Below, one piece after another: positions 26,293 to 54,237 of a DNA stretch of 64,000 bases (within the stretch, counting starts at the first letter, position 1; every line of letters begins with the position of its first letter). Origin of the DNA: Rhizaria sp. SCN 62-66 (taxonomy: Eukaryota). The DNA lies in the NCBI GenBank assembly GCA_001724265.1, contig MEDY01000097.1:1-64000 (forward strand). Reading direction: 5' to 3'. Below the pieces are notes generated by a model. It saw only the letters and a list, made by a program, of their open reading frames with translations. It was not told the origin of the DNA and did not search any database. The position numbers were made by a program, and so were the translations under genes.

Positions 26293-26348
26293 ACTGCACT
26301 GCACTGCACTGCACTGCACTGCACTGCACTGCACTGCACTGCACTGCA
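26293..26348. repeat. (ACTGC)n pentanucleotide microsatellite, about 11 copies
   Basis: Perfect tandem actgc units seen directly in non-coding DNA. Confidence 0.95.
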
Positions 26349-26598
26349 TTTGAGCGCGGCTGCTCAAAGAGAAAAATACGAAAGGAACAGGAACGAAGAC
26401 GATAAGGACGGGGATGAGGATGAGGGGGAAGGTGATGAAGAAGGACAACAACAACAGCGACGAAGCAGAAGCGGGTGCATTAGCGGATGCAGGACGGAGT
26501 GAACGAGAGCGAAGAAGAGAGAAAGAGATGAATGGAGAGGCTGAAAGAGCGGGCTCAGGAGGACATAGGGGACTGGGAAAGGCGAATGATACGAACGA

Positions 26599-26647
<49 letters not shown>
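26599..26647. repeat. Compound (TG)n(AG)n microsatellite
   Basis: About 13 TG units abutting about 11 AG units. Confidence 0.95.
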
Positions 26648-29600: not shown

Positions 29601-29960
29601 GCAACGGCGTTAATGCAGAACCAGGGTCCGGTTCAGTTAGTGTGGGCGCAAAGCAGGTGCGCATCTTGATAGCGGATGCAGAGCGAGAGTTAAACATGAA
29701 TCACGAATCGCGCGCGCAAGCGCAAGTCGAGACGTAGGCAGTAGATGCAGCAGAGAATACAAGGCAGAAAAGCAAAGCAACAGCGTACAAACAGAGAGTA
29801 ACCTTTTGAGCAAAGAAACTTTCCGGGTTATCAATCAACACATGGTGCAGAGAAGCAGGACAGAGCGGTGCATTGGCGATCATTGACTCGCGTTTCGCAT
29901 GGACACGAGGCAACGACTGTGCGTAAGCGGGTAAGCATGGCAGGCGGCAGACTGGCACGC

Positions 29961-32900
29961 TTACTCTTGCTGGTAGCGCTGCTCAGCGGGGTTCCACGAC
30001 GCCTGTTGCCCCCAGCGGCCGCCAGACTGATGTTGCTGTTGCTGCTGCTGCTGCTGCTGCTGGGACTGCTGCTGAGACTGCGGCTGGCCGTAACCATCGC
30101 CCTGGTTCGCGTCGCCGTGGCCGTGGCCGGTGAGATTGCTGTTGCTGCGGCTGTGGCCGCTGCGGTGGCCTGGGCCCTGGCTGTAGCCATGGCCGCCATA
30201 GCCGCCGCGCGCGGGCGACCGGCTCTGCGGCGAGTGCCCGTGCTGCTGCTGCTGGTGGTGGCCGCCCCGCTGCTGCTGCTGTTGCTGCATGTGTTGCTGC
30301 TGCAGGTGCGAGTTGAGCATCTGCGGCGACGGCGGGTATGCCACAGCGCCCGCGCCTGCGCCCGCGCCCGCGGAGGAACCGCCGCCGCCGCGACTGCTGC
30401 GGGTCAACGCGCCGGGGCTGTTATGATACACGCTGCCGCTCTTGGGCCCGACGAGCCCGAGCCCAAGCCCCACGGGCGACTGCGGCGACGGCGCCTGTAG
30501 CGTCTGCGGGCCGCCGCTGCCGCTGCCGCTGCCGCTGCCGCTGCCGCTGCCGCTGCCGGCGCTGCCGGCGCCGCTGTTGGCGGCGTAGTAGCGCGGCGCT
30601 GCGCCCGCAGCAGTCGCGGCCGCGGCCGCGGCGGCCATGGACGCGGACGAGTAGTTGCCGTGCGGCGGGTACGCCGAAGTTAGGCCGCTTGCGTGCGCGT
30701 GCGCGTGCAGCATCACATGCGACTGTTGCTGCTGTTGCTGCTGCTGCGCGTAGCCGTACGCGGCGTACCCGACGGGCCCGTGCGCGTGTACCTGGCTGAG
30801 TCCGGCACCGCCGTGGCCCGGCTGGGCATGGCCGTGGCCGTGTGCGTGCGCGTGCGGCTGCGGCGGGTAGTGCTGCAGCTGCTGCATCTGCGGCGGTGGC
30901 GCGTTCGCGGCGGGGCCCGGCGCCGACGCGGCAGCCACGGCCGCGGCCGTCAGCGCGGCGGAGTTGCCGTCGCTGTTGCTGGGGCGCATCGGCGTGCCGG
31001 ACCCCGCGCCGACACCGGCGCCCGCGGGGACGCCCGCGAGCCCGCGGCCGTAGCCGCCGTGGGCGACGCCCAGCCCGCCCGGCATGCCCCCGTGGCCGCC
31101 GTGGCCGCCGAGCCCGCCGTGCAAGTGGGCGCCGTGCGCGTGCGCCTGCGGGTGGCCGTGGGCCGCGGCGAGCCCGTGCTGACCGGTGAGCCCATGCTGA
31201 CTGGTGAGCCCGTGCGAGACGCCGTGGCCGTGCGCCGGCTGCAGCCCGCTGTAGCCCACGGCGTGGGCGTGGGGCGGCGCCAGCGCGTGCGCGTGGACCG
31301 CGGGGTGGCCGTGCGCGTGTGCAGAGTGCGCGACGTAGGCGGCGTGCGCGGCCATCGCGTGGCCGTGGGCCGCGGAGTGACCGTGGGCTGCCGAGTGACC
31401 CTGGGCAGGGTGGCCGTGGTAGGCGGAGCCGGCGCCACCGTGCGGTTGCTGCTGCTGGGAGCCCGCTGCTGCCGCAGCGACCGCAGCTGCAGCGGCGGCC
31501 TGTTGCTGCTGTTGCTGCTGCTGGGTGTTGAGACTGAGGCCCATGGCAGCCGCCGCGGCCGCCGCAGCCGCGGCAGCATGCTGTTGCTGCTGCTGCTGCT
31601 GCTGCTGCTGTTGCGAGGGAGACGCGGCGGCGACGGCGGCGGCGGCCGCGGCGGCGACGGCGGCGTTGCTGTTCGCGGCCGCGGCGACGGCGGCGGAGAT
31701 GATGGGCGTGCCCGAGGCCGTGAGCGGGGTGAGGCCCGCGGGCATGGCGACTGGCGGCGCGCCAGGCAGCGTGGGCGCCATGGCGGCCGGCACCGGGCAC
31801 ATCACGGGCTCGAACAGCACGCGCGGGCGCAGCGCGGCCATGGCCTCGACGAGCACGCCGGGCGGGACGGGGCCCGTCAGGAGATCGAGCCCGCCGCCCG
31901 CTCCGGTGCCCGCGCTGGTGGAGCCCGCGGCGACCGCGGCGGCGGCGGCGGCGGCCGGGTGCGTCGTCGCGCCGCCCGCGCCCGCGCCCGCGGCAACCAC
32001 GGCAACGGCGGTGACCGAGGTCAGGACGTGGATCAGCGTCTGCGTCACGGCAGCCAGCACGCGCGACGGCGCGCCAGAGAAGGACACGGTTTTCTCGGTG
32101 GAACGCCCCACGGCCTCGTTGGCCACGCGCACGACAGCGCCAGTGCTCTGCCGCAACGCCGAGATGGTTGCGCCCGCGGGCCCGATCACCGCACCCGACA
32201 GCCCGGCAGGGATCAGCAGCGTCAGGTGCGCGACACAGGTGTCGTCGAGCGCGCCCGTGGTTAGCAGCGCGTCGGCCGGGACCAGCTGCGTGCGAGGGTA
32301 GTACTGGGCCGCCGCGGCCGCAGCAGCAGCGGCCGCCGCGCCGCCGCCGCCACTGCCGCCACCCGCGTGGTGACCGTGGCCGTGGCCGTGCGCGTGACCG
32401 TGAGCATGGGGGTACCCGTCGGGGTCCGAGCCCGAGCCCGCGGTCGAGGCGACGACGGCCGCGGCGGCCGCAGCGGCGCCCGCGGGCGTCAACGTGGTGA
32501 CTCCGTTGGCCGCGGTGGTTGCGACGAGTGTGTTGTGCGAGTCGTACACGAGTCCTTCCAGACCGGCCACGGGCGAGGCGATGATGACGGTGTGGTACGA
32601 CAGCTTCGACACGATAATGTGCAGCGCGGCGGTCACCGCGGGCAGCACGCCGCGCAGGAAGAGCACGCGCGTGTCGGCGCCCGGGCTGTGCGCCTCGAGG
32701 TTCACGTACGCGCCCGTGCGCTCGCGCAGCAGGCGGATGGTGGAGCCGCCGCGGCCGATGACGGCGCCCGCGGAGCGCGCGGTGAGCAGCAGTCGCACAG
32801 GCAGCAACATCTGTTCCAGCAGTACCGGCAGGCCGACCGTCGTGCTCATGCCGGGCAGGGGCAGCGCGGGGCCGGCGGTGCCCGTCGCGCCGCTCGTGCC

Positions 32901-35062: not shown

Positions 35063-37990
35063 ATGCCCAAGCTTAGCGTTGTTCCCCTGCTTCTTCTGGC
35101 TGCTGGTACGTTTCTTTATTTAATTCATCTCGTCGTCTTCGTTTTCGTTGTGAATTTAGGCGTACAAAATCTCGTCGTCCATGCTTGCTGACACAGCGAG
35201 CCCCGATCTTGGTTTCGTCCGGATAAGGCCGTATTGCTCCACTCGAAACGGCATTTTGTTTCTTATTCTGAACATCGATCTACTTGTTATACGCCAAACT
35301 ATCACGTAATTTGTGCTGGCTATCGTTTATTAGCAGATTTTCATGACTGGACAGATTTTGCGGGATGCTGACCAAGCTCTCAAAGGGTTGCGAAGACATG
35401 AATCTTCCCTCTCTTCCTCTTCACCCTTGCTCCATCATTCACCATTTCTCACTTTAAACCTGCTATTTCCTTCTATATTCCTTCTTCTATTGCTCCCGCC
35501 TTTGCATCTACAGCGGCTGCCGCCCCCTATGGCGCTGTTGCTGAGGAGACCACCATCTCGGCGACTGCGACTGCGACTCCCGTCGTGGACGCTGCTGCCC
35601 CCGTGGCCGTCTCTACTTCCGACATCTTCACTCCCGAGCAGCGTGCCGAGATCGAGAAGACTGAGCAGAAGTACGAGTTCCAGGCCGAGGTGAACCGCAT
35701 GATGGACATCATCATCAACTCGCTCTACACCAACCGCGACATTTTCCTCCGCGAGCTCATCTCCAACGCCGCCGATGCGCTCGACAAGATCCGCTTCCTG
35801 TCCCTCACGGACAAGGCCGCTCTTGGCGAGGGCGACGTCGCCAACCTCGACATCAAGATCCGTTTCGACAAGGAGGCCAAGACGCTCACGATCACCGACA
35901 AGGGTGTGGGTATGTCCCGCGAGGAGCTGATGAAGCACCTCGGTGTCGTCGCCAAGTCTGGCACGACCGAGTTCGTCGAGGCCGCGGCCTCTGGCAAGGA
36001 CGCCCTGTCGCTCATCGGTCAGTTCGGTGTCGGTTTCTACTCGATCTACCTTGTCGCCGACAAGGTCACGGTCACCTCCAAGGCCAACGGCCACGACCAG
36101 TACGTGTGGGAGTCGACCGCCAACTCGGTCTACACCATCGCCAAGGACCCCCGCGGCGACACTCTGGGCCGCGGTACCGAGATCACGCTCCACCTCAAGG
36201 ACGACGCCAAGGAGTACGTCAACGAGCGCAAGCTCACCGACCTCGTCGGCAAGTATTCGCAGTTCATCAACTTCCCTATCTACGTCCAGGTCACCAAGAC
36301 CGTCGAGGTGGACGAGCCGCTGCCCGAGGAGGAGGCCGCTGAGGACGCCAACAAGGACAAGGACGACGTCGAGGTCGGCGAGGAGGAGGACGCCGGCAAG
36401 AAGTCGAGCGAACCCAAGACCCGCAAGGTCTCGAAGCAGGTCACCGAGGACAAGCGCATCAACTCCGTCAAGGCCATCTGGACGCGCGCGCCCGCGGACA
36501 TCGAGGAGAGCGAGTACACTGACTTCTACAAGACCCTCACCAAGGCCACTGACGAGCCCCTGGAGAAGCTGCACTTCACTGCCGAGGGTGACATCTCGTT
36601 CAAGTCGATCCTGTTCGTGCCCAAGACGGCCGATGCCGGTCTCTACGACAAGTATTACGAGAAGTCTCACTCTCTCAAGCTCTACGTGCGCCGCGTGCTC
36701 ATCTCGGACGAGTTCAAGGAGTTCCTCCCGCGCTACATCAACTTCGTCAAGGGCGTGGTCGACTCGGACGACCTGCCGCTCAACGTGAACCGTGAGACGC
36801 TGGCGCAGAACCGCGTGCTTAAGGTCATGAGCAAGAAGGTCACGCGCAAGGTGCTCGACATGCTCAAGAAGATGGCCGCGGACGAGAAGAAGGCGATCGA
36901 GATTGAGGAGGAGAAGAAGGAGGCCGCCGCCAACAAGGACAAGGACGGTGACGACGCCGACGCCGAGGAGGACAAGAAGGACGAGGACGAGGCCAAGTAC
37001 CTCAAGCTCTACACTCCTTTCTGGGAGCAGTATGGCCGCTCCATCAAGCTCGGCTACCTCGACGACCAGACGAACAAGAACCTGCTGATGAAGCTGCTCC
37101 GCTTCAAGTCCTCCACGAGCGAGGACAAGTGGGTGTCTCTCGAGGACTACGTTGACCGCATGGGCGACAAGCAGAAGACCATCTACTACATCACCGGCGA
37201 GTCTGAGGCGGCCGTCAAGGCGTCGCCGTTCCTCGAGCAGGCGATGAAGAAGAAGGTCGAGGTGCTGTACCTCACCGACCCCCTGGACGAGTACATTGTC
37301 CAGTCCCTCACCGAGTTCGACGGCACCCCGCTGCAGTCGCTCACCAAGGAGGGCGTCAAGTTCGGCGATGAGAAGAAGAACCTGCTCAAGAAGCTCGAGG
37401 ACGACTTCAAGCCCCTCACGCAGTGGCTCAAGAACGTCTACGGCTCCAAGGTCGAGAAGGTCTCGGTGTCGAACCGCCTTGCGCAGTCGCCCATGGTGCT
37501 CGTCACGTCCCAGTACGGCTGGTCCGCCAACATGGAGCGCATCATGAAGTCCCAGGCGCTCGGCGACAACCGCGCCGCGGCCGGTGGCGCACGCAAGCAG
37601 CTCGAGATCAACCCGTTCCACCCCATGGTCAAGGCGCTGCTCGAGCGCGTCGGCGAGGACGCCGAGGCGAGCGAGACCAAGGACCTGGCCGAGCTGCTCT
37701 ACGACGCCGCGCTGCTGCGCTCCGGCTTCGGCATGGAGGCGCCCGAGAAGTTCGCCCAGCGCGTGCACCGCATCGTCTCGTCGTCGCTCTCGGTCGCCGA
37801 GGACGCCGCCGTGGAGGAGGAGCCCGAGGAGGACATCGACGAGCCCGAGGCTGAGGACTCCTCTAGCTCCAGCTCCAGCTCCGACACCAGCAGCGGCGAC
37901 GGCTCCAACGTCTACACGATCCCGCCCGAGGACATCAAGATCTCGGCCACGCCCTCCGCGCCCGCCGATGAGGACAAGGACGAGCTCTAA
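35063..37990 (+). CDS. HSP90B1: Endoplasmin / GRP94 (ER HSP90)
   Basis: Model join(35063..35105,35514..37990). Exon 1 plus the exon 2 start encode signal peptide MPKLSVVPLLLLAAAAAAPYGAVA; phase-1 intron GTACGT...CTACAG. HSP90 motifs FQAEVNRMMDIIINSLY, FLRELISNAADALDKIR, IGQFGVGFYS, GVVDSDDLPLNV; C-terminal KDEL. Confidence 0.97.
35106..35513 (+). other. Spliceosomal intron (GRP94)
   Basis: GTACGT donor, long polypyrimidine tract, TACAG acceptor; joins the signal-peptide exon in frame. Confidence 0.88.
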
Positions 37991-38926
37991 GTAAGCTTTC
38001 AAAGATGAAGTTAAAGAGTGCTCCGTGTGGTGCTCTTTGTCCTCTATTAAAGCTCGCTTATCTTTTCCTGCAACTCTTTTCCCCTCTTGTCTTGCTATGT
38101 TCTAACTGTTTTGTGCCGTGTTCCTCTGATGCGTCTTGTCGACTTTGTGTTGTTTTTGTTCATCAATTTTTCCCCCCGATGCTGCTGAAGCGTGCGGTGG
38201 GTGCGTGTTTCTGTTGTCTGTTTGTGCTGGTGCTGGTGTCGCGACGACGACGACGGACGGTGTCTGCTGTAGCTGCTATGATGCGCGCAGCCCTGGCCGT
38301 CTGTTGCTGATGTTAGTGCCCGTTCTCAGTCTCATTGCATGTGATTGTACGCCTCAGTCCCAATCACTTTTGTCTCTTCGCGAATAATACTAATGCTTCT
38401 CCGAAATACGATTTATCATAATGAAATACCTTTATTACCTATAAATAAAAAAAGGATTCTTAACGTAAAACTCCCATATCAGTTTCAATTGCATCGTATT
38501 AATATCATATTGTTCAGCTTTTCCGCATCATGCTACTCTGCTCTTCGTGGTGACAGCGGTTGGTGGCGGACTGGGGGGGACTCGGTTGCACGCGAAGAGA
38601 AGATGGTCGGACCAAAGCCTTATTATCTCGACAAAATTAACGTCAACACTTGTGAAACTATGTTATTGATTAAAAACCTAGAGTTAAAATATTATATCCA
38701 AATAGAATTATCAAAGACGATGTAACTGTTTCGCAGTCCGTGTTTAAAGTTTCTAACGTATCCAACCCCGCTCTAACAGCTCTTTCCGGTCTCTCTCGGC
38801 TCCACAACATTTCCTTCTCATCCCATTGCATTATAAAGGTGATATTCCAGCTTTAAAGCTCCGCACCTTTACGGAAACTACATTCACACCGCGACACACG
38901 CAACAGGAGGCGTGATACCGAGCGCG

Positions 38927-41900
38927 ATGGCAACAATGGCTGCCGTTGAGTCATCATCGTAGTTCGTCAACATCCTCGGTGACTTCACCGAGGAGGAGAT
39001 CTTCTCACTGTTCTCCGACGATGATTTGAACATCTTCTCTCCTGAGCGCGCTGACGCGATTCGGCAGCAGCAGGGCGAGTACCTCACCCGCATCCGCGCC
39101 TACCTGGCAGACCCCGCTCTGAGCGACACGGGGGACGTGCTCCATGACGTATGGCAGCCCTACATCAACTGGGCGCGCGACGTCTTCGACTCCGACCTAC
39201 AGGAACCGCTTGTGAGCTTTGTGCTTAAGCGGTGCGTTGTGTGGCTGTTTAACGACCCGCGGTACTACAACTCTGTGCAGTTTCTCGACGTCATCATCAT
39301 CCTGATTGACATCATGCACGACCACACCGACCAGGTACGACTTCACTCACGCAGACAGCACGCATATCTGTATAGCTTCAGATTATTGTTAATTATAACG
39401 CGTCATATTGTGTTTCGCATAATGTATCATTTTCTCACTTGATTTCCACTTAATTTCGTCGTGTTACCCCGCTATTATTTCCACCATGCACAGGTCTCGA
39501 CGTTCCAGGCACTGGACAGCTGCCAGCGCTTTCAGTCCCTGGCCAAGTTCTACGAGGCCTACGCCACAGTACTTGAGCTCAACGGCTACATTGCTCCCGC
39601 GGCCGACATCCTCGCGCGCGCCTATCTGGCCCACGCCACGCCCGCGACGACCCTCGAGGCGACCTTGGACGCCGCGCGCATTAACGCGCCGGAGCTGTAC
39701 AACCTCGCACAGGAGGCCATCGCGCGCTACACCGCGGGGCAGGCCGCCGACCAGGCCGCCGACCAGGCCGCTGCCGACGCGGCCGCCGCGGAGGCCGAGG
39801 CGCAAGCGCAGGCTGCAGCAGCGCAGGAGCAGGAGCAGAAGCAAGCGCAGGACACCAAGCGTGGCACCAAGGTCGCCCGCACAGGCGCCACCGCCGCCGC
39901 GTCCTCCTCCGCCGCTGCCGCTGCCGCTGTCGCTGCCGCTGCCGCTACTGCTGCTTTGCACAGTGCGCCCGCGACAGCGCCTGCACCGATGGCCGCGGCG
40001 CCTCTGCCCGTGTACACGTTCTCGGCCGCGCACGGGCTGTACACGGCCGCAGACGGCTGCGTCGTCGGCTTCGTGCCAGCGCTGCTGTATCCCACGGCCG
40101 GCGGCGAGCGTTCGCTCGAGGAGGTGCGCGCGGCGTGGTATTTCGCGCGCAAACGCGCGGCCGCGGCCGCTGCAGCTGCGAAAGCCAGCGCTAACGCCGC
40201 TCCTGCTGCCCATGCTGCTAAAACCAATGATGGTGATGACGATGACGATGATGATGCGGCACCAGTCACGGCCCCCGTCTCCGTCCCCGCCACCGTCAAC
40301 AGGGCCACGCCCCTGCGCCCCTTTTACGCCGCAGCGGGCGCCGGCGCGGGCGCTGGCGTGCGCGGTCTGCTCACTCCCGGCGCCTCGACAGGGCTGCCCG
40401 CCGCGCGCACGCCGTTCCGCAAGCACACGCCGGTGCGCAGCGGGGCGCCTGCGCAGACCTCGGCCTTTGCGTCCGCGGTTACCGCCGCCCACGGCCACGG
40501 CCACGGCCACGGCAATGGCCACGGGCATGGGCATGGACATGGGCATGGACACGGCGGGGGCTCGCCGTCGGACATGACGCGCAATGTGCTGCAGCGGCTC
40601 GACCGCGTGTTCGGCAACGGGTCGGACTCGGACTCGGACGACGACGACAACAAACCCGCTGCCAAGCCCGCCGCCAAGCCCGCTACCAAGGCGTCCGCTG
40701 CGAAGACCAAGACTCCCGCGCCCGCGCCCGGGCCTGCGCCTGCGCCTGTGCCCGCGTCTGCGTCAGCCAAGGCCAAACAGACTGCATCCGCCGTGCCCAC
40801 GCCCGCGCCTGCCGCTGCGCCTGCCGCCGCGCCGGCGACTGCGACCGCGAAGCGCATGCCTTTCGGCGTCTCAGCCGCTGCCACGTCTGCTGCGATCGCA
40901 ACGGCGACTGCGTCAACGACGCCCGCGGCGCGTACTGCGTTCGGCCCCGTCGCGCCCGCGCCCGCGTCTGCGGCCGCTGTCCCCGCCTCTGCGGCGCCCG
41001 CGCGCAGCAACCCGTTTGGCGCCAGCTCCGCCGCGGCGGCCACGTCCGCGTCCGCGTCGACCTCGGCCGCGGCGTCGAACGCGCTGTACCTCAGCGGCGA
41101 CAGCGATACCACGGTCGCGCTGGGTTCGTCCTCGCTCTTCACGTCGTCGACTGCCGCGGCCGCTGCGCAGCAGCAGCAGTCGGCGACGGCGGTGGCTGAT
41201 GATGACGTGACGGGCGACGTCACGCGCATGTTCATGCAGCGCAATCAGGTGCGTATACTTAATACCGACAAACTTTAACTGCAGATTTGAGAGTTCTCTA
41301 CAATTCATCACGAATCTAAAGAAAACGCGCTTAATTTACATATTTTTGTTACATGTTATTACTTTTTTCTTTTAATATTGCACAATTTCTCACTTTGTGT
41401 TCCTATTTCAATTTCCTTGCTACGGTTTTTCTTTTCGCAGGCGCTCAAGGCCAAGAAGGCCGCCACGTCGATCGCCATCTTCGACGACGAGGATGACATC
41501 GGCGGCAGTAGCACCGGCGGCGGCGGTGGCGGCAGTGGCGCTGGCTTTGGCGCGCGTCCCGCAGGCTTCGGCGCCCCCGCTGGCGTAGGTTTCGGTGCTG
41601 CCGCTGGTTTCGGCGCCGCTCGCCCCGCAGGCTTCGGCGGCGGCGCTGCTGCAGGCTTCGGTGCCAAGCCGCAATCGTCGTCCGCCATCTACTGCGACGA
41701 CGACGACGACGACGACGGCGGCAACGCCGGCGCTGCCGCTCGCAGCAACACTGCGAGCGAGAGCAGTCACAGCGAAGCCCCCGTGCGCCGTCCGTTCGGC
41801 GCCGCTCCTGCGCTCGTGTCCGCCGCCGCGGCGGTTACGGGCACTGGACCCAGCCATCCCAGCTTTGAGCGCCGCAAGTCGCTGCGTCAGTCACTCAGCG

Positions 41901-42367
41901 CCATGGTTGCACGGCCCAGCGCTGCGTCGCTCGCGTTCAACTCATCATCGTCATCGTCATCGGCGTTATCAGCTTCGGCAGCGGCTGCGCAGCACAACGC
42001 GGCTGCCGCTGCCGCCGCTGCCGCCTCTGCTGCCGCGGCCGAGGACGACAACGCTAGCTTCCTGCGGCAGCTCGAGAAGGCCGCCGCCTCCGGCAGCGCT
42101 GGCACTGGCGCTGGTGCGGGAGGGGGAGCATCAGCCGACGAAGGGGATGACTGGCAGAACGAGGCGCTGGGGCTGGGGCTCGGCGCGCGGCGCAAGAGCC
42201 TGGCGTACCCGCTGCCGAACGACAAGATCAACCCGCGGCGCGGCTCGCTGCGCGCGGGAGCGCACTTGCCGCTGGAGACGAGGAAGCGCCGAACAAGCGT
42301 GATGCTTGGGCAGTCGGGCCTGCCGCCGGTGCAGCAGCAGGGGCCGGGACAGGGGCCCGGCAAGTGA
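38927..42367 (+). CDS. BUB1: Bub1/BubR1/Mad3-family spindle checkpoint protein (TPR + GLEBS, no kinase), with an in-frame TAG at codon 12
   Basis: Model join(38927..39334,39494..41248,41441..42367); both introns are phase 0 GT-AG. Mad3/Bub1 TPR region (GDVLHDVWQPYINWARDVF...VLKRCVVWLFNDPRYYNSVQFL; SLAKFYEAYATVLELNGYIAPAADIL) and GLEBS-like LLYPTAGGERSLEEVRAAWY (about 40082-40143). TAG at 38960-38962 is in frame with ATG 38927. Confidence 0.8.
39335..39493 (+). other. Spliceosomal intron (Bub1/Mad3-like gene, within the TPR region)
   Basis: CAG|GTACGA...GCACAG|GTC, AT-rich, phase 0, joins the two halves of the TPR region. Confidence 0.85.
41249..41440 (+). other. Spliceosomal intron (Bub1/Mad3-like gene, second)
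   Basis: CAG|GTGCGT...TTTTCGCAG|GCG, very AT-rich, phase 0. Confidence 0.85.
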
Positions 42368-43169
42368 GGCTGCCTGCGATGCGATGCAGCTAACTTATTG
42401 TTGACGATGAACGTGGATAACGTGTCATGTGTTGTTTTATGAAGCCGTGGTTCGACATGTTGTTGAAGTTGCTGGTCACGGAATGTGTTTGTGGTTCCTT
42501 GAGAGTATTTGCGATTTACGCATCAGTATTTGGGGCCTAATGTGTAAAAACGTAATATATATATTTTGGTACCAATGAATAAATGTACTATTTAGCATTC
42601 GACTTTACAAATAACCGTTTCATCAAGATATGCACTGCTTTATTGTATTTTCGAGTCGCTCGGTCAGCGAGCGAAGCGTCGCGAACTGCTCCTGCGTGAG
42701 CGACTTTGCTATTGAGTCGCTTTCTATGGACCTTCCGTCAACCAAATTGATAAGAGCAATACTGAACATTCCACTAATACTTATAACCTGTCACTTAGCG
42801 GTAGTCTATTTCACGTTGATTATAAGGCACACGAGTCATCTTCATCTTGACGACGAGCTCAACTGACGTGCTTGAAGTGTGCGCCTACTTTTCGGAAACG
42901 CCGGATATCTGGTCTCAATCAAGTCATGTGCAACCTATTCTACATTTTCGCATATTAAGCTAATGCGACGTATATGGATAGCTTGGTAGCATATCTAATT
43001 TAGCCTTTATTCACTCGTAGTGATACTACCTTAATCAGGATGACGCAACGAAGCCCTGACAGGCTCACTCTCTCATTATCGTCCACCCAGGCCCTTCACA
43101 TTTATTTCTAGCAATTATAACACTTACCTGTCCGTTACCCACACTGTTTTCCTTCCGATCTAGCTGACG

Positions 43170-44162
43170 ATGGCTGCTGCCGTTGCTGACTGTGGGTGCC
43201 AGGCGTGGCGCTTCAACCCCGACGTGGACGTCGACGACAAGTTCGCGCCGCACCAGTTCACCCCCAACGTACCCGTGTCGCACGCCGAGCTGGAGAAGCT
43301 TGGCGTGCTCTACTTCAAGATGGCGCAGCTCGACGCGGACCCCCAGCTGGAGGTGCTGAAGAAGGAGCGCGGCTACACCAACTTCGACGTTGTCAACATC
43401 ACCGCGGCGACTCCGGCGGAGAAGCTCGAGATCTTTTACGATGAGCACCTGCATGAGGACGAGGAGATCCGCCTCTGCCTCGCCGGCACCGGCTACTTTG
43501 ACGTTCGCAGCGCTGGTGACTCGTGGATCCGCATCAAGTGCAACCCCGGCGACCTGTTGATTCTCCCGGCCGGCATCTACCACCGCTTCACGCTTGACTC
43601 GTCCAAGAGCATCACCGCGATGCGCCTCTTCACCTCCGCGCCTAAGTGGATCGCGCTCTCCCGCCAGGAGACGGCGACGGATGCCGTGCCGTCCCGCGCC
43701 GAGTACACCGCCGCCGTGCGCGCCGCCACCACGGGCGCGGGCGAGCCCATCATCATCGACGACGGGCCGCAGGCGCTCGCTCATTACCCCCACGCGCGCA
43801 AGGCCGGCGGACTCATCTATCTCTCCGGCTTCTCCTCGCGCCGCCCCGACAACACGCACCGCGGCGCCGTGGCGCGCGCCGAGGCCGACGGCGGTGGCTT
43901 CGAGCTGGACGTGTTCGAGCAGACCTGCGGCGTGATTGAGAACATGCGCACCGTGCTTAAGGCCGCCGGCGCGGACCTCAGTCACCTGCTCGACATCACC
44001 GTGTTCCTGACCGACATGGCGCACTTCAAGCGGTACAACGAGGCGTACAACAAGTACTTCACGGCACAGACGGGCCCCACGCGCACCACGGTCGCCGTCA
44101 AGCAGTTGCCGCACCCCAACCTCCTCATTGAGATCAAGGGCGTCGCTGCTGAGAAGATCTAA
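43170..44162 (+). CDS. ADI1: Fusion: acireductone dioxygenase (ARD/ADI1 cupin) + Rid/YjgF-family deaminase (2-aminomuconate deaminase-like)
   Basis: Single uninterrupted 330-aa ORF. N-half has ARD metal motif FYDEHLHEDEEIR and PGDLLILPAGIYHRFTLD. C-half has AHYPHARKAGGLIYLSGFSSRRPDNT...YNEAYNKYF...GPTRTTVAVKQLPHPNLLIEIKGVA (Rid fold, catalytic Arg in PTRTT). Confidence 0.92.
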   Translation: MAAAVADCGCQAWRFNPDVDVDDKFAPHQFTPNVPVSHAELEKLGVLYFKMAQLDADPQLEVLKKERGYTNFDVVNITAATPAEKLEIFYDEHLHEDEEIRLCLAGTGYFDVRSAGDSWIRIKCNPGDLLILPAGIYHRFTLDSSKSITAMRLFTSAPKWIALSRQETATDAVPSRAEYTAAVRAATTGAGEPIIIDDGPQALAHYPHARKAGGLIYLSGFSSRRPDNTHRGAVARAEADGGGFELDVFEQTCGVIENMRTVLKAAGADLSHLLDITVFLTDMAHFKRYNEAYNKYFTAQTGPTRTTVAVKQLPHPNLLIEIKGVAAEKI

Positions 44163-45053
44163 AAGACTACGACGTTTCCAAAAACTACGTTGTATTTGTT
44201 TATTGTTGTATTCGGGCGTTGTATGCGCCACTTGGTACAGTGTGACTTAAAGCAAACTAATAATAAAAATATTGTTGTTTTCTTCTTCGAATAGTCATTT
44301 TTCTTGACATTTGTACATTTGTAAACTGTGTGTACCACCGTCCGTCTGGCGCAGTTTGCGATAGCTCTTTCGGTCCATTATCATTCCATCAACATGCGCG
44401 TTAAAGAAAAGTAGATTGTATTGTTTTTGTAATGTGACATCATGAATATAAGAAGTCAGTCGTAGCCAAGCTTGTTGTCGTTACGTTCCATTCAATGATG
44501 GCGCAATCTGTACGTAACGTGTAGGGACACTTGCTCAAATGATTGCAAATGCGTACAGCGTACAGTCTGTGCTTCATTTTAAATGACATTACTCTTAGTG
44601 CAAGCTCCAACAGCGTCACTTTAAGGTAATCTATCTTGACACGACACCACATTGCATCACCTAACATACCTGCACACATTGACCTAATGTCTCATGCACG
44701 CCCCAATCTCCATCTCAGTGTGCGCAGCCGCAGCCGCAGTCTCACGACACAAGGAAGGTGGCGGCGCCGCTGCTAGCTGCTGCGGCGAGGCCCCCCGCAC
44801 ACTCGCGGCGATGAGACTGGGGTCTGGGGAACGACGTGGAGGAAGACTGATAACGCACGGCAGCGCAACACAGCAGCGTGTTCCACTGGCCATATCCGTA
44901 TTTCATATTTGGTTTCATTTTCTGTTGATAATAAGATATTGTTTTCTAAAAATCGTCGTTATGCTTGGCGAATATTCCATCGTAAGCTCACCTAATCCCC
45001 GATGCAATCCTCGGTCACATGTCATTGCGTTCACTCAGTCTATACGCGCTCGT

Positions 45054-48000
45054 TCACACAAGCGGCGGCGGCGGGGGCTCGTCATAGTCGTCGTCGCTGT
45101 AGTCCACCGCCTCCGGCATCGGCGGCGCGCTCACACTCGCGCGGGCGTCAGCGTTTCCGCCCGCGTTAGCCGCGTGCACGGCGGCGAAGAACGCAGCGCC
45201 ACGCAGAGGTGACTTGATCGCGAGGTCGTCGTCCTGCGGCCGCGGCGGCAGCACAGCAGGCGCGGCGGCCGAAGGGTGGAACCAGCTGCCCGCGGCGGCG
45301 GGAGCGGGCGGCATCGTGCCGGCGAACGGCCCGCCAGTCTTGCGCTCCACTGCGTCGTAGTCAGCGCCCGACTCGGCGGGCGGCGGCGGCGGCGGCGGGG
45401 ACAGCGGCTCCCCGCCGTCCATAGTAGCCGGCGGGGGCGGGATCGGGGACGAGAAGGCCGACGACGCGGGCGGGGCGCGCGGCGGCGACGCGAACGACTG
45501 CGATGGCGCGGGTGCGGCCGAGATGAACCCCGAGCTGGACCCGGGCGCGGCGGGCATGGGCGGCACCGGTGCCGGCGGGAGAACGGGCATGGGGGGCAGC
45601 GCGGGCGCGGAGCTCGGGGGCGCGGGCGCAGGCGGCAGGCCCGTCGCGGGGCGGCCGGGCGGGAGCGAGGTTGGCAGCGTCGGCACGGGTGGCACAGGCG
45701 CGGGCACAGCAACAGCAGTGGGAGCGGGAGAGGGAGCGGAGGGCAGCGTGGGAAGCGCGGGGCGCGTCTGCGGCAACACGGCCGGCAGCGGGGGCGGCAG
45801 GATCGACTGCGCGCGCGACTGCGCGAGCGACGGCGGCAGCGACGGTGGCTGAGACGGCGGCTGCGACGGCGGCTGCGACGGCGGCTGCGAGTGCGCGTGC
45901 GACTCAGTCTCGGAGTAGTCGTCAGTGGGCGACATCGGCGGCGGCGGCGGCGCGGGCGAGTTGGGCTCCGAATCGCTCGCAGCGGGCGGCGGCGGCGGCG
46001 GCGGCGACACGAGCCCCGGCGGCGGGGGTGGCGCGCCGAACTCGTCCTCGTCCTCCTCTTCGTCCGCCTCGTTGAACGCCGTGGGCGCCGGCAGCGACTG
46101 CAGCAGCGACGGCACAGCGGGCTCAGCGGAGGCGCCGCCGGCGGTCGGCGGGGCCATGAAGGGCGGCGGCAGCACGCTGGCGCGCTGCGCGACGTTGGGC
46201 GGCGGCGGCGGCGGCATGACGCTGGCGCGCTGCGCGGACGGCATGAAGGGCGGCGGCAGCACGCTGCCACGGGCAGCGCCAGCGCCAGCACCGGCGGCGC
46301 CCGGCAAGGGCAGCGGGTGCGCGTTCGCGGGCGTGAAAAACGACGAAGGCGACAGCGGACCACCGGCAGCAGGAGCAGCAACAGGAGCAGTGGTAGGGGG
46401 GAGAGCAGCGGCAGCAGCAGTGGTCGTCGAGAACATCGGCGGCAGCGGCGGGGCGCTGGAAGCAGCTGAGCCGCCCGAGACGGTGATGCCGCCAGAGGCC
46501 GAGAACGCGGGGCCGCAGTGGCTACCGCTGCGGGACTTCTTCTGCGCCAGCGCGGCGAGCGCCTTGATCCACTCAGCGTTGCGCGCGGCCGCCGCGGCGC
46601 CGGCGCCGACGTCGGCGTCGCCCGGCGCGATGGAGGAGCCCGTGGTGAGCCAGAAGCGCCGCGACGAGGTGTCTGACACCGAGGGCATGATGTAGAAGAG
46701 GCGGAGCTGGTCCTGCGGGGTCGCGAAGTACGTCGCCGCGGCCGTGATGGTCGCCGCGTCGGCCGCGCGCGCCGCAGAGGCGGACTGCACGCCCACGGCG
46801 CCGGCGCTGGCGTAGTCGTCGTCGTCGACCTCGCCGCCAGTCGCCAGCGCTGCCGCGGCTGCCGCAGCCGCGGCAGAGGGCGTGGTGCTGCGGGCCTCGT
46901 CCTGCGCCACCGCGGCCGCCGCGGCGACGTCGTTGGTGGAGATGAGCCCCACGGTGAAGTCGTCCGGCAGAGGGATCTCGCCGCGCGGCTCCGCGTCCGT
47001 CTTGCGGCGGTAGTACAGCAGGTGGTCCGAGTGCAGCACGGCGTAGCGCTTAGCCCACGCGCGGCCGCTGGACGACGCCTTGTACAGGTAGCCCTCGCGC
47101 AGCGCGGCGGGATCCTTGCGCTCCACAGCGGCGGCGGCCGCGGCGGCGATGGCCTGCGCCCAGCCCAGACAGTCATCGTCCGTCTCGGCAGCGAAAAAGA
47201 CGCGCTTCGAGTCCTCGTCGCCCGTCACGGGCAGCACAAAGCCGTGGGCCAGCGCGTCGCCCGCGGGCAGCACCTCGGGCATGGCGTCGCTGGTGAGGCG
47301 GATTTCCTTGCTCGCCGTGTCGACGTCGGCGCCGAGTGTGTGCATGTACACGAGGCGACCCGGGAAAAGCACCATGAAGCGCCGCGCGCCGCGGGCCTTC
47401 TTGTGGTTCTTGTACAGGTAACCCTCCTTGATGGACCCGGGGTACGACCGCGCGGGCTGCGCGGCGCGCACGGATTCGATAGCGGCGACCCAGGCGCGCG
47501 ACTCACTCTCGCGCGCCGTGGCCAGGAACGTGTCGACGCCCGTCTCGTCCATCGACGCGCAGAGCGAGAAGATCGAGTCGGGCGAGGTCGAGCTCAGCCC
47601 CTGCGCCATCTGCGCCTCGGCGTCGGCCGCGGACGGGACCGCGGCCGCGGCAGCGCTGGGCGAGACTGCAGAGGGCGCAACGTCGGGGTGCGCGCCGCAG
47701 AAGAGCACGCGCGCGTAGAGCGAGACGCCGATGCGCTCGGCCACCACGTCGTGGTCGCGGCTGCTGTACAGAGACAGCCCCTCGCCGTGGGTCAACACGG
47801 CGTACTTCTTGAGCCAGCGCTTCTGCGGCAGCGCGCGGTCGCGTGCCGTGAACACGTAGCCCTCCATCACGCTGTCGGGCACTTTGCGCACGGGCGAGCC
47901 GCTCGACAGCCCCGCGAGCGTGCGCGAAAAGGCGGAGTAGTCGCCGTCAGTGAAGGTGCAGAAGGTGAACTGGCGCTGGTTCTTGTCGCCCGACTCGGCG

Positions 48001-50446
48001 ATCGACAGCTGCCGCGGCCGCGCAGGGTCAGAGTTGCCCAACACGCGGAACTCGAACCCGGCGCGCAGCGCGACTTCGCCGACGGCCTTCTTGTCGGCGC
48101 GGTGCTTGTAATACATCAGCCGGTCGGGAAGCACGACGCAGTAGCGCTTGGCCCAGCGCGTGTGCGACGTGTTGGACTTGTAGATGTAGCCCTCGAGCAG
48201 CGACCCGGGGACCTGGCGGATCTGCCCCAGCTCGGGCCCCGCGGCGCGCTGCAGCGCGAGCCCCGCCGCGGCGCGCTCGACGGGGCCCGCGCAGACGAGG
48301 TAGTATAGCTGCGAGTCGTCGTCGTTGTTCTCGGCGAACAGCACCGTCGCCTCGGCGGTGATCTCGCCGTGCAAGTGCGGCGCGTAGCCAATGCTGGCGT
48401 CCTCGCCGGGGGAAAAGTCGATGAGCGTGGTCCCGCCCAGCGGCACTACCTGCTCGGGCTTGTCCGCGCCGGCTTCGGGGTAGATGAGCGCCGCGCCGGG
48501 CAGCACGAGCAGGTGCTTGACGCGGCCGTTGACGCGCAGAGTCTGGTCGAACATCGGCGGGCGCAGGATGGCCGAGTGCGAGCGCAGCGCGCCGAGCCAC
48601 TTGTCGCGCTCCGCCGCCAGCTCGGTGGCGAGGATGACCGTGGGCGGGACGTTCCACGCGGGGCCGTCGGCGGGCACGGCGGCGTCGGCGCCATACTCAT
48701 GCAGCCAGATGCCCAGCCGCGAGGGGCCGAGGAAGACGGGCGTAACGACAGTGCGGTACAGACGCAGTGTGTGCTTTGGCTTGCGCGCGCGCGACGTGTC
48801 GGTGCCTTCGAAGAGCTGGAACTCGCCGCAGCGCACGTAGGCGTGCGAGGGTGTCCACTCGCTCGAGAAGAGGCCCTTGGAGAAGCTCGAGAGCGTGCCG
48901 TCGATGGGCGCGTCAGGCGGCGTCAGCGGGGTCGGCGCAATGTTGACGCCGGAGCCCGGGATGAGGCCCAGCTCGGCGATCGCGGCGGCGCGCGCGGCGG
49001 CCGTGGGCGACAGCGCGCTGGCCGGGCTGGACGGGCCCGACATCGCGGCCGCTAGAACGACTCCGGTCAGCCCGGAGCCCGCCTGGCCGGTGGAGCGCAG
49101 AGTCGCAAACAGAGTCGGCCCGCCGCTGGAGCTGGGCGAGAGCGCGCTGGGAGAAGACACCATCAGGGGCACGCGAGCCACGGTCTGCGTCTGGCCCTGA
49201 GTTTGACTCTGGGTCTGCGCCTGTGCCTGGGGTAGCGTCACGGAGAGGTTCGACGGCAGAGCGGAGGCGGTGTTGGGCGCAACGGGCGCGGGGGCGGGCG
49301 CGGGGGCGGACTCGGGCGAGGAGGCGGCGGGGCGCGCGGCGACGGGGGGCCGCACGGGCAGCGCAGGCCGCGATGGCGAGCCAGGGATGGGCTCAGCATC
49401 AGCGTGCGCGACGGGTTCGACAGCAGGAGCAGCGGCAGGCGCAGCCGCAGGAGCTGGAGCTGGAGCCGGGGCGGCCGGGAGCGCGGGGGTGGCGGGCAGC
49501 GCGGGGGCAGCGGGGAGAGCAGGAGCGGTGGGGAGAGCGGGAGCGGTGGGGAGAGCGGGAGCGGTGGGGAGAGCGGGAGCGGTGGGGAGAGCGGGGGGCA
49601 CGAAGGCAGGTAGCGCGGGCACAGCAACAGCGGCGACGGCGACAGCGGCGGCGGGGGCCTCGTTCACGGCCTCGGGCATGGGTGCAAGCGCTGCGGGGGC
49701 TTCCTGCTGCACGGGCACAAGCACAGCCGCAGGCGCCGCCACGGCCACGGCCACTGCAGGCTCGGGCTCGGGCTCTGCAGGCTTCGCGGCGGGGACGGCA
49801 GCGGGCACAGGGAGCGGCGCGGAGGGCAGAGACGCGGCAGGGCGAGGGGACGCGGCCGCGGAGGGCGTGGGCGCGGCGGAGCCCGCGGCCTCGGGGTTGG
49901 TCCAGGAGGTCGCGCGCGTCGTGGGGTTGTAGTAGTAGGTGCGGCCTTCGGGGGTCTTCAGCTCGCGCCAGACAGGGACAGGCTCCGAGGCGCCGTCAGT
50001 CACTACGGGCTTCGTCCAGCTCGTTTCTTTGGTGATTTTGTTGTAGTAGTAGGTGCGGCCACGAGCATCAACAGCGCTCACCCAGTTAGGGGGCAAGTCC
50101 GTCGACGACTGGGGCATGCAGCAGTGTCGGAGAAGATCAAGAAGCAAACATGATGAACGGATAGTAGGGGGACGTTATGAGGCGCTTTGGAACTCAAGAT
50201 CAGACTATTCTCAGAATAAAACACGTCAAACAAATACTAAAGCAACAGTTATAAAACCATCAGATGCTGTCTTTCTTATTAGCGGAAGTATCGCAGCGCT
50301 ATGCTGGGACTTAACGTCAGCCAGAGAGTCCAACGTCAGACGACCAAATGCAATTAGAAAAGAGAGTTGTCTCGCTTATAACAGAATTTTTGGAGCAAGC
50401 TATAAGAAAAAATAAGTGTCCCAATAGAAAAAATAATACGTACCAT
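45054..50446 (-). CDS. Scaffold protein with 2 WW domains, about 6 PH domains and a proline-rich tail
   Basis: WW1 LPPNWVSAVDARGRTYYYNKITKETSWTKP, WW2 WRELKTPEGRTYYYNPTTRATSWTNP. Repeated PH starts EGYIYK, EGYVFT and EGYLYK (twice), with closing W helices in most repeats. Proposed model: ATG 50446-50444, intron 50443-50109 (GTACGT...CCCCAG, phase 0), exon 50108-45054. Alternative unspliced ATG 50117. Confidence 0.85.
49522..49593. repeat. 18-bp coding tandem repeat (GGAGCGGTGGGGAGAGCG) x4 encoding ALPTAP repeats
   Basis: Seen directly; flanked by degenerate copies (ALPAAP, ALPATP) in the WW/PH gene. Confidence 0.9.
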
Positions 50447-50703
50447 GACGACAGGCCGGATTTCTGATTCACAACACACAAACAAGGCAACGAAACTTGG
50501 TCTCGTCGTCTATTAGCCCAGCGCACGCCAGCGTCGGGCAAAGGTGACTGCATAGTGACCACAATGATTATGCACTGTTGCGACGATATAGATAAAGTGT
50601 ATTGTATATATAACGGCGGAATCCCACACCACGAGTGGTTCAGAGCCTCCTGGCCCGCATTGAACATCAGTCCACTTGAATATCACCGTGCATATCTCCG
50701 CAT

Positions 50704-53700: not shown

Positions 53701-54237
53701 GTCGTCGTCGCCGTCAGCCGCGGCAGTCGCGACAGGAGTCACGACAGCTGGGGCAGCGGCAGCGTGCGCAGCGTCGACACCGCCGTTGGCAGCGGCGGCC
53801 GCGCGGCGCTGCGCGGCAGTCATTACGGGGGGCGCAAAGCCAGTCGTGCGCGGCGTGGCGAGCGCGGCGGCGGCCGTGGGCGGCTGGGCCCCGGCGCCGG
53901 AGGTCGCGGGCGCGAGCGGGGGCGGACGGAACGAGTCGGTGGCGGAAGGAGCGCGGGAGTCGCGGGTCACACCGGCGGGCGACGCCGAGGCGGGGTGCGC
54001 GGCCGCGGCGGGCTTCATGGCTAAGCCGGCAAAGAGCGAACCACCGCCCATGCCCGACGCGGGCGCGGCAGCGGGGCGCGGCGCGGCGGCGGCGGCAGGC
54101 GAGGCGGAAGTCGCGATCACAGCGGGCGCGGGTGTGCTCGAGACGGCCGCCATCGCGGCGTGGGCCGCAGCAGCAGCCTTGGCCTGGTCGGCCTTGGTCT
54201 GCTCAGCCTTTTTGTTGCCGAATATCGAGCTAAACAT
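50704..54237 (-). CDS. Long coiled-coil protein with two UVR-like motifs and an acidic tail
   Basis: 1177-aa ORF with coding-like composition. UVR-like QQAAAEADDFERADALNGEIEAL and EKRAAVTGKNFKQAGALTNQI, heptad Ala/Glu/Arg-rich core, Glu/Ala-rich C-terminus. Stop TGA. Confidence 0.75.
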   Translation of the reverse strand: MFSSIFGNKKAEQTKADQAKAAAAAHAAMAAVSSTPAPAVIATSASPAAAAAPRPAAAPASGMGGGSLFAGLAMKPAAAAHPASASPAGVTRDSRAPSATDSFRPPPLAPATSGAGAQPPTAAAALATPRTTGFAPPVMTAAQRRAAAAANGGVDAAHAAAAPAVVTPVATAAADGDDDNEPSAFGFIGGDDDDEGDGNAAVNTAAPTPLTLPTSPSGAPPAPPTSRPPVAVAPAAAAATAAPLRAYSAPDPLLPAESEVDRVVTALAAQLSSSFSHARTAVAAAQAARAREAAAEAAGAALLQRLSAAAAEQQAAAEADDFERADALNGEIEALRAQADAQRAAVDAARAEAAEAEELSAARGAGDQLAAAAAALAADTRVRREELTAFGSSETRRLERDAAALAAEEERVRVLLRHLAADAAKAAGEQDEVQAQLDEETKEDSATRTSLLAAQMAVRGDIDSLEAQLADKYAELQRSEGALEACEAKLRTAAQAFDRKFKRVEERRAAVAEEEAAAQHELGEIAARAQRHAADAAFVAAQRAIMAGDVAAAELARAELAHAAARAGAAVGAHDAWTAAATAARALVDSELAALRGVEQEGEALAARLLAVQTSESEHANTVTEADRSLPVLQAEKRAAVTGKNFKQAGALTNQIADLTAVKAASEAEIARLQSEAAEIVAEVARVEAAAAAATAALGGAHERKDRASARALRVRARRFARMQARARAAADVVAQSNADRARTLLPNAAREHADAEALAEAEAKAAAAAADNEDKKESDDAAAAAESAKDAKDPKDKDAAESVTASACAPPTAAATAAAAVLVLARWAGTPISALHAVERLGRALGTAAGAAVAAALRAQERAAGEAVAVSRAALAAVRERHGWSEQQEAEDEAAAREGAASDEDDEAEAEAEAEGEAEAEAVAATTEPVVAAVETAADTDAVAAAEAPEPEAEPEAEAEASPVATERSPAQQESQAEAAAAAAQFEHERMIDQQQHEQHEQQKLEHEEHAESHVVASAEAEAAPAEAEAEVEVHEPEGNAEPEAEAAEAEATANDEGDGELDLDAFMAQSGDEPTAPAEHSAEAEAASDAELANAESAEEPVAAVAAEEEEDAMAMFMAAADEQEAAAHHDPKKPADAVAPEVAAAEAELAAAVDAPIPDGEEDDTLAAFMQDNA

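Follow-up and report, generated by a model that had tools for sequence, protein, structure and literature searches.

A TAG triplet occupies the twelfth codon of a Mad3/BUB1-type gene (38960–38962, plus strand, with T at +4), which raises the question of whether and how the protein encoded beyond it is made. The window, meaning the whole stretch of DNA analyzed here, comprises 64,000 nucleotides of contig MEDY01000097.1 from Rhizaria sp. SCN 62-66. The source, an uncultured wastewater protist, looks cercozoan on sequence grounds, the best named matches of its HSP90 being from Paulinella, Norrisiella, and Bigelowiella; one relative (P0007) has an HSP90 with 83% identity. As a tentative answer, in which our confidence falls somewhat short of even, we suggest that translation starting at 38927 passes the UAG at codon 12 and runs into the TPR domain.

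The start, the stop, and the domain belong together in one frame. ATG 38927–38929, the TAG, and the Mad3/BUB1 exon are in register exactly where the initial annotation had placed them, and a second in-frame ATG precedes the TAG at 38936–38938. The first in-frame ATG 3' of the TAG is found only at 39314–39316; initiation there would remove the whole exon-1 share of the domain (profile positions 15–80 of 123), so Pfam profile positions bear out the earlier expectation that this start would sacrifice TPR sequence. A three-exon model (38927–39334, 39494–41248, and 41441–42367) spans 1030 codons, in which the only stops are the codon-12 TAG and the TGA that ends the gene (42365–42367), in agreement with the impression that the remainder of the gene is free of decay; an AT-rich spacer follows the TGA. 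A base-call error had also been considered. The JGI contig L001 matches window positions 37961–42334 with 0 mismatches in 4374 bases, and the per-run contig of X3 is identical to the window over 38000–39766, both with the TAG included, while either may derive from the window's own source sample. Given this identity in two other assemblies, the TAG is real DNA and a sequencing error is an unlikely source of it.

The domain assignment relies on two partial matches to the Pfam family PF08311 (Mad3_BUB1_I). Residues 56–122 of exon 1 align with profile positions 15–80 (E 7.6e-07, 29.5 bits) and residues 3–42 of exon 2 with positions 82–121 (15.5 bits); each exon, scanned singly, stays under the cut-off of 31.4 bits, and the profile runs on from one match to the next across intron 1 (39335–39493, 159 nt, GTACGA...CACAG). 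The 124 codons of exon 1 that follow the TAG (38963–39334) probably carry the N-terminal part of the TPR domain, which resumes past the intron and ends in exon 2 (39494–41248). The latter continues with an alanine-rich linker and a stretch at 40106–40156 that we take, by eye, to be GLEBS-like. Beyond intron 2 (41249–41440, 192 nt, GTGCGT...TCGCAG), exon 3 (41441–42367) holds two motifs (41471–41491 and 41684–41701) that are presumably ABBA-like, judged in the same manner. No KEN box was found in the 1030-codon model or in the three plus-strand frames of 37991–38962, and exons 2 and 3 gave no Pkinase match at E up to 0.1. The closest homolog, P0002, is 41% identical and does have an N-terminal KEN. 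Besides the window's own ORF call, word-index searches and an exhaustive representative search produced no relative above 41% identity, a metagenome scan returned only one identical contig, and a 40-base exact pattern had no match among the genome contigs searched. Codon 12 itself lies in the non-conserved N-terminal stretch.

The eleven codons ahead of the TAG (38927–38959, plus strand; ATG GCA ACA ATG GCT GCC GTT GAG TCA TCA TCG, MATMAAVESSS) form the N-terminal end of the protein or else a separate upstream ORF of 11 codons. Each ATG is flanked by a purine at −3 and by G at +4, and the 207 nt preceding 38927 are free of ATG, a stretch among the longest at 15 gene starts. The codon score of the eleven codons (−3.1) falls between those of real N-termini and 5' leaders in the window, so their coding bias is not clear; the first 11 codons 3' of the TAG score +14.9, and the best-scoring coding segment is exactly 38963–39334. 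A TATA-like motif, TATAAAG, lies 95 nt 5' of the ATG (38832–38838, plus strand) and is weak evidence; the TATA box was set aside as a marker of transcription start, being too rare in the window (2 of 15 gene starts).

The onset of coding bias precisely at 38963 could also be explained if TAG/TTC were a 3' splice site, the true start lying in a short upstream exon joined in cis or as a spliced leader. YAG is a legal acceptor, and the neighboring HSP90 gene offers a local precedent, with a first coding exon of 43 nt followed by a 407-nt intron. RNA evidence is compatible with this arrangement. Four sequencing runs were compared with window positions 38000–55000 at 90% likeness, a comparison in which GC-rich low-complexity matches from other organisms swamped the joint, loose-end, and piece tables. 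In the RNA run (X5), mean depth was 2.47 in the bin 38567–39133 and 0 at 38807, which fits an RNA start either near 38870 or at 38963; among the matches listed, no piece from this run crosses 38927–38962. The run contains parts of exons 2 and 3, including a contig (record 16) that covers 41961–42446 in exon 3. Several features nevertheless weigh against a hidden splice. The three introns in the window (159, 192, and 407 nt) have the donors GTACGA, GTGCGT, and GTACGT, that is GTRCGW, and CAG acceptors in 3 of 3 cases; among the 31 phase-0 pairings of an ATG with a GT in 37991–38926, not one has such a GTRCG donor, and GTGCG, which occurs at 38192 and at 38202, is out of phase in both places. 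The search space is narrow, as the same-strand HSP90 gene ends at 37990 and leaves only 937 nt. The 80 nt 5' of the TAG are purine-rich with an exon-like GC content of 0.52–0.58 (intron 1: 0.32–0.33), whereas real intron ends here are pyrimidine-rich and AT-rich, and a rival AG lies 13 nt upstream. Neither a spliced-leader RNA nor any other Rfam family was detected, in the window or in 37900–39100. The unseen upstream exon proposed earlier has therefore found no candidate, and we regard it as unlikely.

A smaller splicing event had been suggested as well, in which GTTGAGTCATCATCGTAG (38945–38962), an 18-nt in-frame segment bounded exactly by GT and AG, or a GC...AG variant of it measuring 24 or 33 nt, would be removed. 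Chlorarachniophyte nucleomorph introns measure 18–21 nt. The putative donor, GTTGAG, departs from the GTRCGW donors of the three real introns, whose lengths of 159–407 nt are of another order, and the contig, with its GC-rich exons and kilobase spacers, is unlike a nucleomorph. The table of bases left out of or put into reads, whose RNA may not span the site, contains no 18-base row. A micro-intron is consequently an extremely improbable account of the TAG.

Initiation at a codon other than AUG would leave AUG...UAG as an 11-codon regulatory upstream ORF and start the protein at a near-cognate codon such as AUC 38972, which has A at −3. This ATC is the fourth codon past the TAG, the place that an ATG would take in three other genes of the window that have an in-frame TAG 2–5 codons 5' of their ATG. 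Upstream AUG...UAG leaders do occur in the window, as a second ATG...TAG case on the minus strand illustrates. There, an in-frame ATG at 54339 opens 28 codons closed by TAG 54255–54253 (54253–54339), as originally located; the accompanying view that this TAG resembles a splice acceptor did not hold, because the gene has an in-frame ATG of its own at 54237, five codons past the TAG, and codon scores, −1.4 for the 28 codons and −7.0 for the linker of five codons, rise to +21.7 over the first 28 codons after that ATG. The second case belongs simply to the 5' leader of the gene starting at ATG 54237; an RNA contig (X5, record 22) follows the window colinearly across 53942–54299. For the Mad3/BUB1 gene, a non-AUG start is very unlikely. 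The 13 other gene starts inspected all use ATG, AUC initiates weakly, and reinitiation as close as 9 nt to a stop has low efficiency. Structure about 14 nt downstream of a start helps initiation, but the hairpin described below begins one base past the A of the AUC. Other mechanisms were set aside: frameshifting, since the ATG and the ORF already share one frame; ribosome hopping, as no in-frame codon matches as a landing site; editing of the UAG from A to I, as ADARs are known as animal enzymes; and pyrrolysine, which depends on pyl genes of archaea or bacteria.

Readthrough gains support from predicted RNA structure that the initial annotation, which had named readthrough among its options, had not seen. 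A perfect hairpin with a 9-bp stem, TCCTCGGTG / CACCGAGGA, and the loop ACTT is predicted at 38973–38994 (plus strand), separated from the TAG by a 10-nt spacer. It is embedded in a 79-nt structured element (38950–39028, plus strand) with a predicted fold of −31.6 kcal/mol (z −4.08; 1 of 200 shuffles equally stable), whose outer 8-bp stem pairs 38953–38960 with 39018–39025, includes the U of the UAG, and surrounds the 9-bp hairpin plus one smaller hairpin. In a set of 721 GC-matched coding segments, just one reaches this stability, although this fraction and the z score must be read in light of the hairpin having been noticed after inspection of many features. The stem codons of the element are rare ones (TCA TCA, GGT, and GAT GAT, with usage of 3–11%). 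Rfam has no match for the element, with nothing at the gathering score across the window and nothing in 37900–39100 at E ≤ 5. A perfect inverted repeat of this kind could equally be a protein-binding site at the DNA level. At the known readthrough sites covered in the cited part of PMC3159437, stimulatory stems begin 7–12 nt 3' of the stop, and the predicted hairpin falls inside that range. The nucleotide context, TAG-TTC-GTC, is not a known leaky hexanucleotide, being neither CAA-UUA nor CGG and lacking C at +4; it also differs from the terminators of the window, where the +4 base is a purine in 15 of 16 cases and T in none.

The locus has the layout of a readthrough site: two coding stretches are separated by an in-frame stop, and the second lacks a start of its own. 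From this arrangement we infer use of the AUG, an mRNA that runs colinear through the TAG, and readthrough by the ribosome. In such a scheme, a ribosome would initiate at AUG 38927 or 38936, an amino acid would be inserted at the UAG, and reading would carry on into the TPR domain. With the UAG in the A site, the 10-nt spacer would place the 9-bp hairpin at the mRNA entrance of the ribosome and so aid readthrough; the U at +4, a non-terminator context, would be a further aid, as perhaps would a general weakness of UAG termination in an organism with UAG at none of 16 gene ends. In a less likely variant, UAG would be a rare sense codon throughout the genome. It would be unusual for a gene's main product to hinge on readthrough at its twelfth codon.

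A recent mutation could instead have placed a stop at codon 12 in one population, leaving a gene that is null, hypomorphic, or decaying. A young nonsense mutation would look much like this, with one premature stop and the gene intact elsewhere, all assemblies examined may come from related samples, and a protein without a KEN box or kinase domain may already have a reduced checkpoint role. The strong structure exactly 10 nt past the stop would then have arisen there by chance. Distinct perfect hairpins with stems of 9 bp or more number only 9 across the 64 kb, and at about that density p is ~0.002–0.01. Also opposed to a nonsense allele is an ORF call of 138 aa, opening with the earliest start codon 3' of the TAG, that recurs identically in 8 contigs and is nowhere recorded in a longer form; exons 2 and 3, moreover, are present in a polyA RNA run of 2025. 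A nonsense allele is thus somewhat unlikely, and readthrough remains our preferred reading.

Whether UAG is a terminator at all in this organism was approached through stop-codon use. Nuclear codes in which UAG alone is sense include those of the rhizarian exLh (UAG=Leu) and of Iotanema spirale (UAG=Gln). A recount of the 16 gene ends in the window reproduced the earlier figures of 9 TAA, 7 TGA, and no TAG, and the claim of a single internal TAG in more than ten thousand codons also stands: 12,430 codons of the 15 other genes have none and the 1030 codons of this gene have one, giving 1 in 13,460 codons. The first in-frame stop 5' of gene starts is TAG in 6 of 15 cases. If TAG closed 20% of genes, its absence from 16 ends would have p ~0.03; taken alone, this absence is weak evidence, because nearly all known transcripts of Guttulinopsis vulgaris, a rhizarian with the standard code, likewise end in UAA according to the cited part of PMC5304391. 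The same part of that source reports 56 UAA and 15 UGA ends for exLh, together with 384 in-frame UAG in 71 genes. The window, from an organism that is probably rhizarian too, resembles exLh in having only UAA and UGA at its gene ends (9 and 7) and differs in having 1 in-frame UAG in 16 genes. Full reassignment is disfavored: the internal count lies far below that of exLh, which makes site-specific, structure-aided readthrough more likely than genome-wide sense use. A screen for in-frame TAGs by GC3 of the flanks returned antisense frames only, the 64-kb window contains no tRNA gene and no eRF1 gene, and a literature search on UAG codes of sainouroids or wastewater protists yielded nothing relevant beyond PMC5304391. 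It seems improbable that UAG no longer terminates, having been lost from gene ends and now re-emerging as a rare sense codon; such a codon-capture intermediate would represent a second, independent UAG change within Rhizaria, with the Mad3/Bub1 codon among its first sense uses.

Were readthrough correct, recoding at codon 12, aided by a dedicated RNA structure, would gate the entire product of a cellular gene and determine how much of a spindle-checkpoint protein is made; this layout is documented chiefly in viruses and in a few genes of animals. If UAG were no terminator, the locus would give a rare view of a rhizarian genetic code in the course of changing. The finding would be ordinary in the case of a nonsense allele or a missed exon.

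The protein resembles Mad3/BubR1/Bub1 (MadBub) proteins in its probable Mad3_BUB1_I TPR domain, here divided between exons 1 and 2, and, by our visual calls, in its GLEBS-like stretch and ABBA-like motifs; it differs from the Mad3/BubR1 type, which has an N-terminal KEN box, and from the Bub1 type, which has a C-terminal kinase domain. The exact 18-nt in-frame GT...AG segment resembles a chlorarachniophyte nucleomorph intron, but in a genome of that type all introns would be tiny and the sequence compact and AT-rich, in contrast to the introns of 159–407 nt, the exon GC3 of ~0.85, and the spacers of ~1 kb found here. Codes with UAG as sense call for many in-frame UAG at conserved positions in many genes, a pattern that the window does not have. 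Viral readthrough shares with this locus an in-frame stop and a downstream stretch without a start. In viruses it adds a C-terminal extension, whereas the stop at codon 12 would make the whole functional protein dependent on it; the present case is also a cellular protist gene and has no CAA-UUA, CUAG, or CGG context. The spacing is similar: the UAG of MuLV gag-pol has a pseudoknot 8 nt downstream, and the stems of alphaviruses, tobraviruses, and furoviruses lie 7–12 nt downstream in the cited part of PMC3159437, compared with 10 nt for the predicted stem here.

The Mad3/Bub1-type gene carries an in-frame TAG at codon 12 (38960-38962, + strand), downstream of two ATGs, at 38927 and 38936, that share the frame of the TPR domain. 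A three-exon model (38927-39334, 39494-41248 and 41441-42367, +) comprises 1030 codons, in which this TAG and the terminal TGA are the only stops. The gene is thus otherwise intact, as the initial annotation stated, and its placement of the ATG, the TAG, the 18-nt GT...AG string (38945-38962, +) and the next ATG of the open frame 3′ of the TAG (39314) was confirmed. That frame matches the Mad3_BUB1_I profile in exon 1 (residues 56-122, profile 15-80, E 7.6e-07), and the match resumes in exon 2 (profile 82-121) past a 159-nt intron. Both a KEN box and a kinase domain are absent from 38927-42367, and a KEN box is encoded nowhere upstream of the gene; the nearest homologues, P0002 and P0003, have one near the N-terminus. 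By eye, we noted what we take to be a GLEBS-like stretch (40106-40156) and three presumably ABBA-like motifs (39002-39019, 41471-41491 and 41684-41701). Searches of metagenome and protein collections returned no relative above 41% identity.

As far as assembled sequences tell, a base-call error, one of the explanations first offered for the TAG, is ruled out: the window shows no mismatch with JGI metagenome contig L001 over 37961-42334, nor with the per-run contig of sequencing run X3 over 38000-39766. Because these assemblies may have a common source, this result leaves room for a population-specific allele. In the protein collection, a single ORF call derives from the locus, present on 8 contigs and always beginning at TTG 39026, the earliest start codon past the TAG; that collection has no longer call.

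According to a codon model with 13 genes as its training set, the coding segment spans exactly 38963-39334, with scores of +14.9 for the 11 codons past the TAG and -3.1 for the 11 preceding it. The latter value falls within the range of real N-termini (-3.7 to +11.9) as well as that of leaders (-17 to +6.7), and the sharp onset at the TAG is therefore compatible with an exon boundary or with a short N-terminus lacking codon bias. Splicing of a hidden upstream exon to 38963 would agree with this onset, and short first exons do occur in the window; however, no candidate exon was found, since none of 31 open combinations of an upstream ATG with a phase-0 GT in 37991-38926 has a GTRCG donor. This part of the initial proposal we consider unlikely. 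Two GTGCG sites (38192 and 38202) have the wrong phase for the sole possible acceptor. The 80 nt 5′ of the TAG are exon-like (GC 0.52-0.58 versus 0.32-0.33 in intron 1) and not pyrimidine-rich, and a pyrimidine-rich tract precedes the CAG acceptor in all three introns definable in the window: the HSP90 intron (35107-35513, donor GTACGT) and Mad3 introns 1 (39335-39493, +, GTACGA) and 2 (41249-41440, +, GTGCGT). An 18-nt micro-intron at 38945-38962 would match neither the size nor the donor consensus of any of these introns, making this earlier suggestion very improbable. The same-strand HSP90 gene ends 937 nt upstream; a 207-nt ATG-free stretch precedes ATG 38927, and the two ATGs that follow this stretch (38927 and 38936) lie in the domain frame. 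Non-AUG initiation at AUC 38972 found no support and seems quite doubtful. The AT-rich HSP90-Mad3/Bub1 spacer also contains a 100-nt GC-rich island (38518-38620, 0.62-0.65), preceded by an acceptor-like TTGTTCAG and devoid of a usable ORF, donor or Rfam match.

Read runs were placed at 90% likeness, and GC-rich matches dominated the result. The polyA RNA run X5 behaves as RNA because its depth is zero in intergenic bins 42536-43102 and 54443-55000; it covers part of exon 2 (39959-40347) and part of exon 3 together with the 3′ UTR (41961-42446). Its mean depth is 2.47 in bin 38567-39133 and 0 at 38807, with none of the listed pieces falling there, and its table of left-out and put-in letters has no row at 38962|38963.

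Ten nucleotides after the TAG, a perfect inverted repeat (38973-38981/38986-38994, loop ACTT) forms a predicted 9-bp hairpin, a modeled feature new to the present analysis. According to PMC3159437, a distance of 7-12 nt separates the stop from the stimulatory stem at known readthrough sites. Across all 64 kb there are only nine distinct perfect hairpins of the 9-bp size, mostly in CAG/CGG-type low complexity. The 35 nt beginning 6 nt after the TAG have a predicted fold of -16.4 kcal/mol, equaled by 1 of 721 GC-matched coding segments and by 7.4% of 4148 unmatched ones. An outer 8-bp stem is predicted between 38953-38960, which includes the U of the UAG, and 39018-39025, and the 79-nt element reaches a predicted -31.6 kcal/mol (z -4.08; 1 of 200 shuffles equally stable). 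Rare codons build the stems, namely two TCA (3% of Ser), GGT (11% of Gly) and two GAT (9.9% of Asp), which suggests that selection acts on RNA rather than on protein. The hairpin was noticed post hoc, after many features had been inspected, and its strand is not assignable because all pairs are Watson-Crick; the palindrome at 38973-38994 could be a protein-binding site in DNA. An Rfam search at the element gave no match. A nonsense allele accounts for all observations but this RNA structure, and we hold it to be rather unlikely. The leading explanation is that the UAG would be translated rather than terminating at codon 12, to which, by all routes together, we give somewhat less than even weight; structure-aided readthrough is the likelier, though still tentative, route within it. 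Other causes share the remaining probability.

The window, a eukaryotic contig found in bioreactor and wastewater metagenomes and one polyA metatranscriptome, combines exons of high GC3 (about 0.8-0.9) with AT-rich spacers and contains few introns. The genes around Mad3/Bub1 are ordinary: ER-type HSP90 (KDEL end), an RGS-kinase, a PLAA/Doa1-like protein, eIF3B, FHA-parvulin, an ARD (acireductone dioxygenase) domain fused with RidA/L-PSP in a single ORF (43170-44162), and two adjacent same-strand MFS transporters sharing domain placement (55127-57250 and 59047-61017), probably a tandem duplication. CaaX-type boxes end two genes, with the residues CTIM in one (9904-12000, -) and CTVM in the other (62777-64000, -); the former gene encodes an RGS-domain protein kinase, an unusual prenylation candidate. 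The roughly 6 kb at 24000-29900, with nearly no coding signal, lowered GC (0.46-0.52), strong + strand purine skew and microsatellites ((GCACT)n 26276-26348, (TG)n 26599-26625), resembles a low-complexity spacer poor in genes. The coding signal of the left-end partial gene (1-2359, -) changes frame near 1983-2017, which suggests an additional intron or frameshift. The best named HSP90 matches, at 54-57% identity, are Paulinella chromatophora (TSA prefix GEZN01, per PMC12569754), Norrisiella and Bigelowiella, a weak hint of a cercozoan source.

A second ATG...TAG case (ATG 54339, TAG 54255-54253, -), previously read as a splice acceptor, is an ordinary 5′ leader with an upstream AUG: an RNA-run contig (X5 record 22, 53942-54299) is colinear across the TAG, and the gene starts at the in-frame ATG 54237(-), five codons past it. 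Codon scores are -1.4 for the 28 upstream codons, -7.0 for the five-codon linker and +21.7 for the first 28 from 54237; this TAG is neither a splice acceptor nor a sense codon. In-frame TAGs lie 2-5 codons 5′ of the start ATG in three genes (43161-43172, 19428-19437(-) and 54237-54255(-)), which is not significant because about 1.2 are expected among 15 genes.

Our recount of 16 visible gene ends, several anchored by KDEL, the two CaaX boxes or Pfam domains reaching the last residues, agrees with the original tally (TAA 9, TGA 7, TAG 0). Internal TAG is absent from 12,430 codons of 15 other genes, so that the Mad3 TAG is one in 13,460, as rare as first proposed. The triplet itself is not scarce, being the first in-frame stop 5′ of 6 of 15 gene starts. 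The base after the terminator is a purine at 15 ends, C at one and T at none, and T follows the Mad3 TAG; TAAGCG occurs at five of nine TAA ends (7551-7556, 16891-16896(-), 29958-29963(-), 57248-57253 and 61546-61551(-)) and, with the purine, resembles a strong extended context for termination in this organism. Were TAG to end a fifth of genes, its absence from 16 ends would have p of about 0.03, which is no more than suggestive. In Guttulinopsis vulgaris, a rhizarian taken as standard-code, UAA ends all but one known transcript, as PMC5304391 relates. Rare or incipient sense use of UAG may occur in this organism, and this part of the reassignment proposal survives, although UAG as a genome-wide non-terminator is improbable. 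Full reassignment misfits one TAG in 16 genes: the uncultured rhizarian exLh, with UAG as Leu, has 384 in-frame UAGs in 71 genes according to PMC5304391, against one in 16 here, and its ends are UAA (56) and UGA (15), compared with TAA (9) and TGA (7) in the window.
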